A DNA stretch of 64,000 bases from Clostridia bacterium (GCA_017556745.1 JAFYMF010000055.1:171-64170); one strand, 5' to 3'. Positions 26,129 through 33,123 are shown, counted from the first letter of the stretch. A program made the numbers and translations. The notes: generated by a model not told the origin, from the sequence alone.

Positions 26129-26326
26129 CCCTACCGCGTTCAAGCACATTTTGAAAAAACATCTCTAACCTCGTAGGGGCGACCTTTGGTCGTCCGTTTT
26201 AATTATATCTTTATCGCTCGACAATCGGGCGAACACAGTTCTCCCCTACGGGTGTGATAGGCTCTGTCGAATAAAATACGGAATTAAGCTCTAAACAATC
26301 CATACCGCGTTTGAGCACATTTTTGA
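26129..26326. repeat. 26-nt direct repeats (171-bp spacing) flanking a GC-rich compound palindrome
   Basis: CCCTACCGCGTTCAAGCACATTTTGA (26129) versus CCATACCGCGTTTGAGCACATTTTTGA (26300). Between them, outer stem CGTAGGGG (26172) / CCCCTACG (26243) encloses hairpins GGGCGACC-TTT-GGTCGTCC and GGGCGAAC-ACA-GTTCTCCC. Confidence 0.8.
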
Positions 26327-26328
26327 GG

Positions 26329-26652
26329 ATACATAAAACAAAGGAAAAAACTCCTTCCACCACCGAATTCGGAATTTCGAAAATTCGAATTCTTGTGGTC
26401 CCCCTCCCTCAGGAGGGAGGCTTGAATGCACATGTTATACTGCTATAATTCTTGAGTATTAGTGGCGCATTCCACAAGAATTACTTGGTTATTCGAAGAA
26501 CACCGTTTTGCTAACGCAAAAACGTAATTCTTCTTTAGTTAGGCTCCCTCCAAGAACATTGTTTACAATGTTTCGGGAGCTGTCGAGCGTTATTTGCGAA
26601 GCAAATATCAAGACTGGGTGAGTATATTTGGAATGATGAAACTACATGAAAC
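26329..26652 (-). repeat. single copy of the multi-hairpin repeat family seen at 31128-31809 (inverted genomic orientation)
   Basis: The reverse complement shares identical blocks AGCCTCCCTCCTGAGGGAGGGGGACCACAAGAATTC (36 nt, 26387-26422) and CCGAATTCGGTGGTGGAAGGAG (22 nt, 26351-26372). It also shares the TTTCAT...ACTC(A/C)CCCAGTC block, with equivalent but sequence-diverged hairpins. Confidence 0.85.
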
Positions 26653-26656
26653 AATG

Positions 26657-26727
26657 AAAAAAACTCCGCCTTATGAGCGGAGTTTTTTAGAAAAGATAAA
26701 AGCGGCTCACCCGAAGGTAAGCCGCTT
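26657..26727 (-). terminator. two tandem terminator hairpins downstream of the surface-protein gene
   Basis: ACTCCGC-CTTATGA-GCGGAGT flanked by A/T runs (26657-26688). AGCGGCTCACC-CGAA-GGTAAGCCGCT followed by a T-rich tract on the minus strand (26691-26727). Confidence 0.75.
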
Positions 26728-30392: not shown

Positions 30393-31076
30393 ATGAATAT
30401 CAAATCTCCCTGTTTATGTAACCGTTTATCGGTTGTTTCTGAATTCGTTCGTCAAGGAGCTGTTGTTGCCGACATCGGAACAGATCATGCTCTTCTTCCG
30501 ATATATCTTCTAAGGACGGGAAAAGCAAAAAAAGCCATTGCTGCAGATATTGCAGAGGGTCCCTTAGCCGCCGCTGCGAAAAACATTTCTGCATACGGCC
30601 TTTCAGATAAAATAACAACCGTACTTTCAGACGGTCTTGACAAAATTGCCCCCTTCTCCCCCACAGACATAACCATCTGCGGTATGGGAGGTGAAACTGT
30701 TATTGATATCATATCAAAAGCTCCCTGGGTCAAGGATCCGGATATACGCTTGATATGTCAGGCACAGAGCTTTCTCCCCGTACTGAGAGAATATCTCCTC
30801 AAAGAAGGATTTTATATAGCAGATGAAGCAATTTGCCGTGACCGTGGAAAGTTTTACGTATGTATAGTTGCGGAATACGGTCAAAGTGAAGATGACTACA
30901 GTGAAACAGAGCTGCAAATCGGACGGCGTAATATTGAAAAATCAGAACCGATCCTCAAGGATTATGCGTCGCACCTTATAAATATACTTGAAAAAAAATC
31001 CGACGGATTAAAAAAAGCAGGAATAGACGCAAGTGATACCGATAAGCTGACAGAAGCACTAAAAAAGTATTTATAG
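30393..31076 (+). CDS. trmK: tRNA (adenine22-N1)-methyltransferase
   Basis: VADIGTDHALLPIYL and GMGGE motifs of the TrmK/YqfN family, 227 aa. Confidence 0.88.
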   Translation: MNIKSPCLCNRLSVVSEFVRQGAVVADIGTDHALLPIYLLRTGKAKKAIAADIAEGPLAAAAKNISAYGLSDKITTVLSDGLDKIAPFSPTDITICGMGGETVIDIISKAPWVKDPDIRLICQAQSFLPVLREYLLKEGFYIADEAICRDRGKFYVCIVAEYGQSEDDYSETELQIGRRNIEKSEPILKDYASHLINILEKKSDGLKKAGIDASDTDKLTEALKKYL

Positions 31077-31127
31077 TTATCTAATATAGCGTTAGATAAA
31101 AAGCTAAATTTATTTAAAACAAGCTTT

Positions 31128-31477
31128 GCTGACAGTCCTCTCAAGAGGGGGCCTAACTTAATAATATATTACTATAGGAAAATTTTCGTTTTCGCTTTTG
31201 CGAAACAAGTGTCACGAAGGCACCTGAGAAAATTTTCGCAGAACGGGCAATCTTTGACTTAGCTTTTTCCGGCGCCCGTTCAGCCTCCCTCCTGAGGGAG
31301 GGGGACCACAAGAATTCCGAAATTCGAAGAATTTCCGAAATTCGGAGAATTTCCGAATTCGAAGAATTTCCGAATTCGGTGGTGGAAGGAGTCGGTTTCC
31401 CGTTCCTTTGTTTCATATAACTTCATCATTTCAATCATACTCCCCCAGTCATCGGGACATTAGCTCCGCAATGTCCT
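31128..31477 (+). repeat. multi-hairpin repeat unit A (350 nt)
   Basis: Starts with boundary motif GCTGACAGTCCTCTCAAGAGGGGGCCT. Hairpins: TTTCGC/GCGAAA, AGGTG/CACCT, GAACGGGC/GCCCGTTC, CCTCCCT/AGGGAGG and GGACATT/AATGTCC. Contains four 17-nt mini-hairpin repeats. Confidence 0.9.
31312..31377 (+). repeat. tandem 17-18 nt mini-repeats GAATT(T)CCGAA(A)TTC, 4 copies
   Basis: GAATTCCGAAATTC-GAA-GAATTTCCGAAATTC-GGA-GAATTTCCGAATTC-GAA-GAATTTCCGAATTC. Each copy can fold as GAATTT-CCG-AAATTC. Several GAATTC sites. Confidence 0.9.
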
Positions 31478-31809
31478 GCTGCCAGCCCCCTCAAGAGGGG
31501 GCCTGACTTGATAATATATTACTATAGGAAAATTTTCGTTTTCGCTTTTGCGAAACAGGTGTCACGAAGGCACCTGAGAAAATTTTCGCAGAACGGGCAA
31601 TCTTTGACTTAGCTTTTTCCGGCGCCCGTTCAGCCTCCCTCCTGAGGGAGGGGGACCACAAGAATTCTGAAATTCGGAGAATTTCCGAATTCGGAGAATT
31701 TCCGAATTCGGTGGTGGAAGGAGTCGGATCCCCGTTACTTTACTTCATATAACTTCATAATTTCAACCATACTCCCCCAGTCATCGGAACATTAGCTCCG
31801 CAATGTCCT
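31478..31809 (+). repeat. multi-hairpin repeat unit B (332 nt)
   Basis: Roughly 95% identical to unit A by eye. Has three instead of four mini-repeats (31662-31709). Starts with GCTGCCAGCCCCCTCAAGAGGGGGCCT. Confidence 0.9.
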
Positions 31810-31836
31810 GCTGCCAGCCCCCTCGAGATGGGGCCA
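31810..31836 (+). repeat. third copy of the 27-nt boundary motif (degenerate)
   Basis: GCTGCCAGCCCCCTCGAGATGGGGCCA, immediately upstream of the DUF559 gene. Confidence 0.8.
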
Positions 31837-31869
31837 ATATAGTCCGATATTACACAAAAACCGAACTTA

Positions 31870-32268
31870 ATGTTTTTTAAGGCGGTGGTCAAAATGCCTA
31901 TTCACTACAATAGTAATAATTTACCTCTTGCAAAAGCACTAAGAAAAGAAGCAACAAAAGAAGAAAATCACTTATGGTATGATTTTCTATCGAAACATAA
32001 TCCACGATTTCAACGTCAAAAGCCTATTGATAATTTCATAGCTGATTTTTATTGTCACAAAGCAAAGTTAGTAATCGAAATAGATGGCTCTCAACATTTT
32101 ACAAAAGTCGGTAAACAAAAAGATCATTTCCGTACGGAGATACTTGAGGGATACGATCTTAAAGTCATAAGGTTTAACAATCTGCAAATACGGGAAAACT
32201 TCCCCGGGGTTTGTATGTATATTGATAAAGTCGTAAAATCAATATGTAACACAGAGGACAACTCGTGA
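31870..32268 (+). CDS. DUF559 endonuclease-domain protein (Vsr/restriction-endonuclease-like fold)
   Basis: LRKEATKEENHLWYDFL...FQRQKPIDNFIADFYCHKAKLVIEIDGSQH...LKVIRFNNLQI matches the DUF559 pattern. An alternative start at ATG 31894 is possible. Confidence 0.8.
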   Translation: MFFKAVVKMPIHYNSNNLPLAKALRKEATKEENHLWYDFLSKHNPRFQRQKPIDNFIADFYCHKAKLVIEIDGSQHFTKVGKQKDHFRTEILEGYDLKVIRFNNLQIRENFPGVCMYIDKVVKSICNTEDNS

Positions 32269-32297
32269 TTTTTTGTTTCACTCCCACAGCCAGCTTC

Positions 32298-32324
32298 GCT
32301 GCCAGCCCTCTCAAGAGGGGGCCT
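32298..32324 (+). repeat. fourth copy of the 27-nt boundary motif
   Basis: GCTGCCAGCCCTCTCAAGAGGGGGCCT, 29 nt after the DUF559 stop and 37 nt before the nif3 start. Confidence 0.85.
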
Positions 32325-32361
32325 AAAGTAAGAACCATGTTGAAGAAAAGGAGGCAAACAG

Positions 32362-33123
32362 GTGAATATAAGAGAATTCGCAAAAAAGATGGATGAATTG
32401 CTGCCGTTGTCGCTCAGATGTCCGTGGGACAACGATGGTCTGCTCTGTGCATCAAAGCCTGACAGAGAAATAAAAAAAGTTCTTGCTACTCTTGATGTAA
32501 CAGAGGATGCAGTCACCCGTGCAATCGATGGCGGTTTTGATATTATCATTTCTCACCATCCATTCATCTTTAAGCCTCTTAGCTCCGTAGTTGCAGACAG
32601 CCTTTCCGAAAAAGATCTTTTCAGACTCATCCAAAACGGTATCGGTGTACTGAGCTACCACACCAGACTTGATGCCGCAGAAGGTGGTGTTGCCGACAGA
32701 CTCTCCTCTCTCATTAACCTTAGAGACGTAGTATCTGCAGGAGAGATCGGAGAAAACATTCTGCGACTCGGTTATAGCGACATAAACGATCTAAAAGAGT
32801 TTTCGACAGGTATCAAACAGGCCTTGAATTCACCTGTTGTAACAGTTGGAGACAGCGGACTACCCGTTCATAAGGTTGCCGTTTGCCCCGGTGACGGCAA
32901 GGACTTTGTAAAGATAGCCTCCTCTCTCGGCGCTGACACATACGTCACCGGCAGATTGTCATACAATATTATGTGCGATGCGAAAAAGATGGGAATAAAT
33001 CTTATTGAAGCAGGACATTATTTCACAGAGAAACATATAACCGAATATTTTGCCAATGTATGCCACGATCTCTGTGGCGCACAGACAGAAATATTCGAAT
33101 CATTTAATATAGATATAATATAA
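32362..33123 (+). CDS. Nif3-like dinuclear metal center protein (YqfO family)
   Basis: GTG start behind GGAGG. Motifs ISHHPFIF and IEAGHYFTE are typical of the NIF3 family. 253 aa. Confidence 0.85.
   Translation: MNIREFAKKMDELLPLSLRCPWDNDGLLCASKPDREIKKVLATLDVTEDAVTRAIDGGFDIIISHHPFIFKPLSSVVADSLSEKDLFRLIQNGIGVLSYHTRLDAAEGGVADRLSSLINLRDVVSAGEIGENILRLGYSDINDLKEFSTGIKQALNSPVVTVGDSGLPVHKVAVCPGDGKDFVKIASSLGADTYVTGRLSYNIMCDAKKMGINLIEAGHYFTEKHITEYFANVCHDLCGAQTEIFESFNIDII

Follow-up and report, generated by a model that had tools for sequence, protein, structure and literature searches.

Triplex-type, GC-rich intergenic repeats have been catalogued and linked to genome instability (PMC4666352). In E. 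coli K-12, 23 TMECO triplex repeats are listed (Holder et al. 2015, Table 1, PMC4666352); no link to a mobile element was found for them, structure-induced instability was proposed (Holder et al. 2015, PMC4666352), and no enzyme partner was put forward (PMC4666352). Vsr-like homing endonucleases are selfish genes that cut a target and are copied in by host repair (PMC3239194, PMC2677866). In this work we analyzed a 64-kb stretch of DNA from a cattle-gut Clostridia bacterium (hereafter the window), in which a DUF559 gene and a set of hairpin-containing repeats, here called T-modules, occupy the 1.3-kb spacer between trmK and a NIF3 gene; relatives were drawn from metagenome contigs, representative genomes and Logan contigs. 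DUF559 is, to our knowledge, a very large family without an established role, which includes E. coli YcjD, and our full-text literature searches found no paper linking DUF559 to repeats. On balance we lean toward reading the segment at 31810-32324 as an old resident DUF559 cassette, in which the nuclease and the T-modules are homing-like partners.

A T-module consists of a pyrimidine arm, a loop, a purine arm, a variable hairpin and a purine block that mirrors the purine arm (the third strand), in that order; judged from its sequence, such a layout could adopt a hairpin together with an intrastrand triplex. The inverted T-module carries a box CTCCC(C/T)C, a small hairpin (Ha) and a GC hairpin (Hb). 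The original prediction looked to other DUF559 loci for flanking copies of the boundary hairpin, and flanking modules were indeed found at most of them. Loci were taken from contigs encoding close homologues (more than 4,000 close homologues of the 124-amino acid (aa) protein were found) and from a scan of one genome per species; 80 loci, from metagenome-assembled genomes (MAGs) of ruminant or human gut Clostridia, were kept, and the 78 complete loci were used for module counts. A strict finder (exact 7-bp stem plus mirror third strand, ≤1 mismatch) detected 142 modules within 400 nucleotides (nt) of the DUF559 gene, in 63 of the 78 loci, and 63 gene-less modules at 32 sites in 955 kb of flanks; the density near DUF559 is 24 times the flank density. 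With looser patterns, a module was present within 400 nt of the gene in 72/78 loci. In the window itself the strict finder returned four modules, all inside the two repeat regions.

The layout seen most often, in 22 of 65 loci, has an inverted doublet after the gene. At most loci the ORF leads into a conserved tail, the first half of which reads GCCTCCCTCC-GAGA-GGGAGGGGG, a second hairpin ACCGCG-TTAG-CGGT and GGAAGGAGCC; after a spacer of ~45 nt come CTCTCCCTCAGTC, Ha, G(A/C)CAGC and Hb (TCCCTCC-CGGA-GGGAGCC). Because the second half has the design of the first on the opposite strand, the tail is an inverted doublet. In 25/65 loci the last codons of the ORF (open reading frame) fall within the module, which accounts for the recurrent C-terminus ...SLREGGGPR, and in many loci modules provide both the ribosome-binding site (RBS) and the last codons of the DUF559 gene. 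Cassettes of different species share 80-95% DNA identity, which ends ~100-137 nt 5' and 175-225 nt 3' of the ORF, while the neighboring genes and contexts differ between species; one MAG carries a pair of copies (L030 and L031) whose contexts differ and which share 95% identity over 701 nt. From these homology limits, the differing contexts and the L030/L031 pair, we concluded that gene and modules travel, or have traveled, together as one block.

Two more conserved segments were seen in the relatives. In canonical cassettes (L030, L033, L034, L037, L044, L051 and others) a 5' module at about -130 to -1 of the ORF contains a terminator-like hairpin CGGCAGAG..CTCTGCCG between A and T runs, TGTGATATAATGG (extended -10) and GGAGGAG; it is absent from the window copy. 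A conserved module of ~80 nt (GGATGCGCGCAACCTTAGGGGTATGGGCTTTGCCC...TTTGTAATACAAAGGCGAAACTGGCGATAAA) after Hb reaches the RBS of whichever gene comes next in L030, L031, L033, L035, L043, L044, L051, L053, L060, L065 and L024, and is absent in L034, L029 and L018.

Gene and modules might also be co-located without being partners: selfish or structure-prone repeats would be spread by another enzyme (e.g., Y1/RAYT-like), by slippage or by template switching at stalled forks, and DUF559 would be a host repair-type nuclease or a passenger in repeat-permissive spacers. The gene-less modules, which at 32 distant sites outnumber the genes, are what this explanation would expect. The 24-fold density, the contribution of modules to the RBS and last codons, and the conservation of whole units in unrelated contexts all argue against it, and we consider it unlikely. 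A candidate for the other enzyme is a 166-aa IS200-like Y1 gene (PF01797, 24.9 bits vs. a cut-off of 23; L009 4247-4747) that lies 1.3 kb from a DUF559 locus and is split into two ORFs in sister strains; a second Y1 gene is present at L091 8351-8827. The two genes lend the co-location explanation some weight, yet neither is flanked by modules, and Y1/RAYT was rejected as the partner enzyme.

Some cassettes are bracketed by direct duplications of the 3' end of the upstream host gene: 42 nt in L028 (cassette at L028 9904-10460), 39 nt in L027, 30 nt in L071 and about 17 nt in the L008 family (L008-L014). Duplications of host-gene ends, variable in length, are unlike a fixed transposase target duplication; at 17-42 nt they fit template switching, as co-location would have it, as well as staggered nicking. 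In L058 (100-1100) a 232-nt exact direct repeat, made of the terminal module and downstream context, brackets the DUF559 gene.

The window locus was then compared with this pattern. Its features are as follows.

26300-26660, minus strand: third, gene-less unit copy, inverted; one full period (spacer, terminal module, X, forward T-module, spacer start), by alignment.
30393-31076, plus strand: trmK (tRNA m1A22 methyltransferase), left host gene (PF04816, E 2.4e-40).
31122-31153, plus strand: leftmost boundary relic, AGCTTTGCT + GACAG + degenerate hairpin GTCCTCTCAAGAGGGGGC, without the pyrimidine box (fold z +0.97, no better than shuffles).
31154-31279, plus strand: unit A part X, a structured 125-nt segment (no BLAST match in 100 DUF559 loci; two stems with compensatory changes vs. 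the third copy).
31283-31393, plus strand: unit A forward T-module, GCCTCCCTCC-TGA-GGGAGGGGG, stem ACCAC..GGTGG around the GAATTC minisatellite, third strand GGAAGGAGTC (rule-based finder; fold z -4.3).
31440-31503, plus strand: unit A terminal (inverted) T-module, CTCCCCCAGTC, Ha (GGACATT..AATGTCC), GCTGCCAGC, Hb (GCCCCCTCAAGAGGGGGC) (rule-based finder; fold z -3.2).
31504-31835, plus strand: unit B, with X at 31504-31629, forward T-module at 31633-31725 and terminal module at 31772-31835 (93-96% identity to unit A).
31836-31893, plus strand: DUF559 leader, without a canonical promoter (from sequence).
31894-32268, plus strand: DUF559 gene, 124 aa, Vsr-like nuclease fold, intact (PF04480, E 3.7e-27).
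32281-32323, plus strand: terminal (inverted) T-module of the DUF559 segment, CTCCCACAGCC, short Ha (AGC-TTC-GCT), GCCAGC, Hb GCCCTCTCAAGAGGGGGC; decayed (fold z -0.87).
32362-33123, plus strand: NIF3/YqfO-family gene, right host gene (PF01784, E 7e-60).

The spacer holds tandem units A (31127-31476) and B (31477-31808), 93-96% identical to each other, and then the DUF559 ORF. It is punctuated by four copies of a boundary motif (core GCCCCCTCAAGAGGGGGC), with the DUF559 gene between two of them. Allowing ≤3 mismatches, the 18-nt hairpin core occurs in the window at 31135, 31485, 31817 and 32305 only; its seven strand-matches compare with 0.03 expected and were reached in 0/100 shuffles. The earlier claim that the gene is framed by boundary motifs of the unit type was thus confirmed, the quoted strings all being present in place: GCTGCCAGCCCCCTCGAGATGGGGCC lies at 31809-31835, and TTTGTTTCA, CTCCCACAGCC, AGCTTCG and CTGCCAGCC at 32273-32307; the hairpin GCCCTCTCAAGAGGGGGC comes next, at 32305-32322. 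The degenerate motif with which the DUF559 module had been said to begin is the Hb of unit B (31817-31834, two mismatches). A metagenome scan for the window-type Hb gave one match, in an unrelated high-GC contig, and for that reason we take it as chance.

The end of the DUF559 segment had been described as the 3' end of the units with three internal deletions. We aligned the 3' flanks with CTGCCAGCC and the hairpin excluded, against 2000 shuffles. The match to units A and B of the window is weak (score 18.5, reached by 169 and 96/2000 shuffles; p about 0.05-0.08), whereas the match to the unit of strain variant L007 is strong and contiguous (CTCCCCCAGTCAGCTTCGCTGCCAGCC vs. CTCCCACAGCCAGCTTCGCTGCCAGCC, score 33.5, 0/2000 shuffles). 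The common 3' end is therefore real. Given the contiguous L007 match, two of the three supposed deletions are a swap of the variable small hairpin, short (AGC-TTC-GCT) in one and long (GGACATT-AGCTCCGC-AATGTCC) in the other; the TTTGTTTCA block may have matched by chance, and in the best alignment TTTC and a 6-nt gap take its place. The shared terminus is a composite module that goes beyond a hairpin and comprises a pyrimidine box, a variable small hairpin and a GC hairpin.

In the right half of each unit (A, 31283-31503; B, 31633-31835) the blocks come in precisely the order of the canonical DUF559 tail, except that a GAATTC minisatellite occupies the second-hairpin loop. Of these blocks, only the last, inverted module (32281-32323) is retained in the DUF559 segment of the window, and GGCGGTGGTC ahead of the DUF559 ATG may be a relic of the 3' end of a forward T-module; no sigma-70-like site was found upstream of the gene. 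The modules that flank the gene (31772-31835 and 32281-32323) are direct repeats in one orientation, and inverted flanks are present in some relatives, e.g., L028. The whole array may be read as a relic boundary, two gene-less units (X, forward module, spacer, inverted module) and then leader, DUF559 and inverted module. Since every segment closes with one and the same module, the modules would act as joints for the gain, loss and exchange of segments.

Segments closed by a hairpin site also recall an integron-like or defense-type cassette array, in which the boundary hairpins would be sites of a recombinase encoded elsewhere and DUF559 a restriction-like cargo. In relatives the context switches exactly at Hb, where L018 and L024 differ, and L024 has a SUKH/SMI1 immunity-type gene after Hb; PADLOC gave weak matches to a methyl-directed restriction enzyme and to DpdF nuclease domains. 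No recombinase adjoins the window locus or the surveyed loci, most "cassettes" are gene-less, DUF559 recurs in place of a diverse cargo, and the PADLOC matches are limited to the shared nuclease core. We regard such an array as extremely improbable. A defense role was rejected, PHROGs and PADLOC giving weak nuclease-core matches only.

Outside the array, the window holds one distant gene-less copy in addition to the two tandem units, with a forward module at 26351-26419 on the minus strand (rule-based finder). Part X is found at 31154-31279, 31504-31629 and 26430-26560 (minus strand). Its stems GTTTTCGC/GCGAAAC and GAACGGGC/GCCCGTTC are both kept in the third copy by two-sided changes, and it has no Rfam match. 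The idea that units A and B derive from cassettes by loss of the ORF, with a 5' promoter module and the 3' tail left behind, was rejected, part X being without counterpart in the 100 DUF559 loci. The frame said to be shared by the gene-less units and the gene holds for the terminal module and fails for the left 125 nt. Terminal inverted repeats and a target duplication were not found at this locus, nor a target duplication around the whole array, as is present at other loci. The suggested relation of a miniature inverted-repeat transposable element (MITE) to its parent was supported only in part: the terminal module is shared, but the units are not deletion derivatives, terminal inverted repeats, a fixed target-site duplication and a transposase are lacking, and the flanks are direct. 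The likeness to the repetitive extragenic palindrome (REP) and REP-associated tyrosine transposase (RAYT) system is an analogy and not membership, since the enzyme is a DUF559 hydrolase and not a Y1 transposase.

To follow the array among strains, we compared contigs encoding the identical DUF559 protein. L001 has a single unit, a hybrid of the left part of A and the right part of B, and L003 and L005 have two; the minisatellite varies from two to four copies, Ha is short or long, and Hb at 31817 is perfect (L004, L006 and L007) or imperfect. The simplest account of this present-day variation is homologous recombination, or slippage, between direct repeats. The GAATTC-rich minisatellite (31310-31378 and 31660-31709) has four repeats in unit A, three in unit B and ~2 in L007, with one Logan contig shorter by 48 nt. 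Logan contigs place the gene on a long unitig present in single copy and have the module region in short pieces, from which loose ends lead into other contexts; metagenome contigs show at least one further context.

In a sister species, whose TrmK is 74% identical, the equivalent trmK-NIF3 spacer also contains a DUF559 gene (67% identical), with the gene first and then 1.15 kb of different repeats. With a gene at the same site in the sister species, DUF559 has probably been resident since before the species split, while the repeats turned over around it. Among the sister-species repeats (L115 4161-5240) are a triplet repeat (GCTTAGTCAGACGTATGT), a pair of units each ~300 nt long and a forward module with a second-hairpin loop of ~85 nt.

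Rearranged forms of the region were also encountered. In contigs of four samples the array is joined, at a point exactly within hairpin H1 of unit B (window 31641), to a different upstream region, and this reflects either a genuine rearrangement at the hairpin or a chimera that recurs in assemblies; at this junction (L002/L111, 3748) phosphoglucomutase and ABC-transporter genes lie upstream and identity to the window is 100% thereafter. In L113 (1-330) an identical NIF3 protein follows a different upstream gene (a P-loop protein), and identity to the window starts ~25 nt before the NIF3 start.

Next, we examined how module sequences vary. Among 55 distinct terminal modules Ha has 33 distinct stems, with a mean perfect stem of 4.82 bp against 2.83 in shuffles. 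Hb occurs with several arm pairs (GCTCCCTC/GAGGGAGC, GCCCCCT/AGGGGGC, CCTCCCTC/GAGGGAGG and GCTCCTTC/GAAGGAGC), and its arms vary in pairs (T:A to C:G, C:G to T:A, G:C to C:G). The pyrimidine box tracks the purine arm, CTCCCTC going with GAGGGAG, CTCCCCC with GAGGGGG and CTCCCTCC with GAGGGAGG; the match of the third-strand box to the purine arm is 6.25, compared with 5.79 permuted and at most 6.09 over 1000 permutations. Such three-way agreement of box and arms, behind which few independent events lie, would be required for an intrastrand triplex. In single-stranded DNA folding, intact modules of units A and B gave z values of -4.3 and -3.2, and the copies at 31118-31160, 31750-31838 and 32262-32326 fold like shuffles (z +1.0, -1.3 and -0.9).

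The same structures could be cis-acting RNA or expression elements of the DUF559 transcript (3' stabilizers, insulators, Shine-Dalgarno/anti-Shine-Dalgarno switches), with the gene-less units as leftovers of gene loss or tail duplication. In most loci the tail is on the strand of the gene, directly after or overlapping its stop codon; CCTCC/GGAGG arms could sequester the RBS, and degenerate hairpin copies show C-to-T changes that preserve G-T pairing on the plus strand. A contig spanning the DUF559 ORF was found in one low-depth run of uncertain kind, possibly RNA, which would also suit this explanation. The mirror-repeat third strand, however, has no role in an RNA hairpin and yet co-varies with the stem, modules occur in both orientations and far from DUF559 genes, and the third copy is inverted between unrelated genes. 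No GC hairpin is followed by a T-run (0 terminator-like sites in 30950-32450), and the boundary hairpins were rejected as intrinsic terminators for that reason; an Rfam search of 30900-32500 gave two sub-threshold chance matches only. Taken together, an RNA role seems to us quite improbable.

The partner that we propose for the modules is the DUF559 protein. It matches PF04480 with 94.8 bits (cut-off 20.6; profile positions 6-107 of 109; E 3.7e-27), and its NCBIfam PRK09767 score of 51.6 is below the equivalog cut-off of 218. There is no match to PF03852 (Vsr proper); besides DUF559, only a sub-threshold match to MTES_1575 was obtained. No Dcm-type or other cytosine methyltransferase adjoins the gene, the neighbors being trmK and NIF3. 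The protein is 31% identical to NGO0050 (3hrl), a solved DUF559 protein (sequence E 7e-11). Its structure model (predicted local distance difference test, pLDDT, 75.6) matched 3hrl in Foldseek with E 1.2e-5 (template-modeling score 0.81 on target) and 3r3p, the catalytic domain of I-Bth0305I, with E 9e-3, as well as the nuclease domains of PvuRts1I and AbaSI. All 32 homologues compared have D51, E62, D64 and H68, residues that correspond in the alignment to D, E, D and H of 3hrl. The model thus bears out the Vsr-like fold and the retained catalytic residues on which the earlier idea of a nuclease depended, and the protein is predicted to be a hydrolytic, Vsr-like nuclease of the PD-(D/E)XK type with an intact catalytic motif. 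Non-synonymous differences (pN) are 0.15-0.20 per site and synonymous sites are saturated; the gene is under strong purifying selection.

In the mechanism that we propose, the nuclease would recognize the extruded hairpin/triplex module and nick or cut it, and host repair would copy sequence in from another module-bearing site. Repair copying of this kind would spread gene-less modules and occasionally the gene. The process would be homing-like and dependent on host repair, and not true transposition. In its favor we count the observed gene–module linkage, the conserved structures, the intact active site and the breakpoint within H1. That the nuclease acts on the modules is the tentative step, for which we would put the chance somewhat below even.

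Several results weigh against the partnership. The 78 loci were picked as close relatives, so the linkage holds for this clade and one E. coli case. When orphan modules were compared for likeness to the resident gene-linked module over the modules of other genomes, the resident was favored in 11/17 loci (p 0.064, not significant), as co-location without partnership would predict. The gene copy in the window, to judge from sequence comparison, looks old, apparently vertically inherited and not recently mobile, which suits co-location too; metagenomes containing the gene have it as a single copy, and no pair of empty and filled sites was found, the loci with exact TrmK and NIF3 proteins and those of the two closest TrmK homologues all being occupied. 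The modules flanking the DUF559 gene are the most decayed of the array (z -1.3 and -0.9). In a sensitive BLAST search the left part of the unit (31154-31279) had no match in the 100 DUF559 loci, the H1 hairpin alone being matched. A hydrolytic nuclease is unable to rejoin DNA, and any mobility must therefore borrow host repair. From the overall reading first proposed, the gene–module linkage, the gene-less copies and the nuclease residues stand; the derivation of a MITE type and recent mobility do not.

The E. coli case concerns ycjD (DUF559; 1,351,407-1,351,760, minus strand). TMECO no. 9 (1,351,204-1,351,239, antisense) lies 168 nt 3' of it on the same strand, an adjacency with a chance of about 1% by our own rough figure of 18 TMECO loci among a few thousand spacers. 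The ycjD stop codon falls within a degenerate CCCTCTCCC...GAGGGGG hairpin of the triplex motif (L121 2030-2840 = K-12 1,351,029-1,351,839), and a duplicate of about 45 nt of the ycjD 3' end is located between this hairpin and TMECO no. 9. The adjacency argues against co-location without partnership; for that explanation speak the lack of a mobile-element link for TMECO and the structure-induced instability proposed instead (PMC4666352). By extension, DUF559 proteins including YcjD would be structure-specific nucleases with Clostridial T-modules and TMECO/BoxC/PIT repeats as substrates, forming a second REP-RAYT-like system, a generalization that we advance as doubtful.

The recurring gene–module pairing points to DUF559 as the partner so far lacking for a class of bacterial repeats. 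If the generalization above is true, it would give a function to a large DUF family and to a repeat class that has been unexplained since the 1990s. The pairing could also account for how rapidly intergenic DNA turns over in gut Clostridia and for the breaks of metagenome assemblies at modules. One paper found DUF559 genes 14-fold enriched among predicted inversion targets, an enrichment that would follow from inverted modules.

Among described systems, MITEs and their parent transposons are alike in that short gene-less elements have ends in common with a gene-bearing element; the locus here differs in lacking a transposase, terminal inverted repeats and a fixed target duplication, and its units are not internal-deletion derivatives. 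The REP/REPIN and RAYT (TnpA-REP) system comes closer in layout: one small enzyme gene, single or in few copies, is flanked by structured palindromic repeats that are also present gene-less, often arranged as inverted doublets, and that are many, as may hold for the genome of the window too. RAYT, a Y1 HUH transposase, both cuts single-stranded DNA and joins it again, whereas a hydrolytic Vsr-like nuclease is expected here; the Clostridial repeats have in addition a mirror-repeat third strand, and the flanks at the window locus are direct, not inverted. Vsr endonuclease has the same fold class, and single-strand nicking chemistry is plausible, but the DUF559 protein has no PF03852 match and no partner cytosine methyltransferase adjoins it. 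I-Bth0305I and the Vsr-like (EDxHD) homing endonucleases have the same nuclease fold (3r3p), and their cut-and-copy spread is the mechanism proposed here for DUF559. They reside within group I introns or inteins and carry extra DNA-binding domains, whereas DUF559 is a free-standing 124-aa protein encoded between host genes, with no intron or intein present at the locus and with a dispersed repeat as its presumed target.

The TMECO/BoxC/PIT repeats (PMC4666352) resemble the T-modules in having a pyrimidine arm, loop, purine arm, loop and mirrored second purine block, and in being intergenic, often in inverted pairs and tied to local rearrangement. The second loop of TMECO is 3 nt, and in the Clostridial modules it is a variable hairpin of 9 to more than 70 nt. 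The sequences are unrelated (CCCTCNCCC vs. CCTCCCTCC), and although the published TMECO pattern CCCTCNCCC-N3-6-GGGNGAGGG-N3-GGGNGAGGG does not describe the Clostridial modules, the logic of the blocks is the same.

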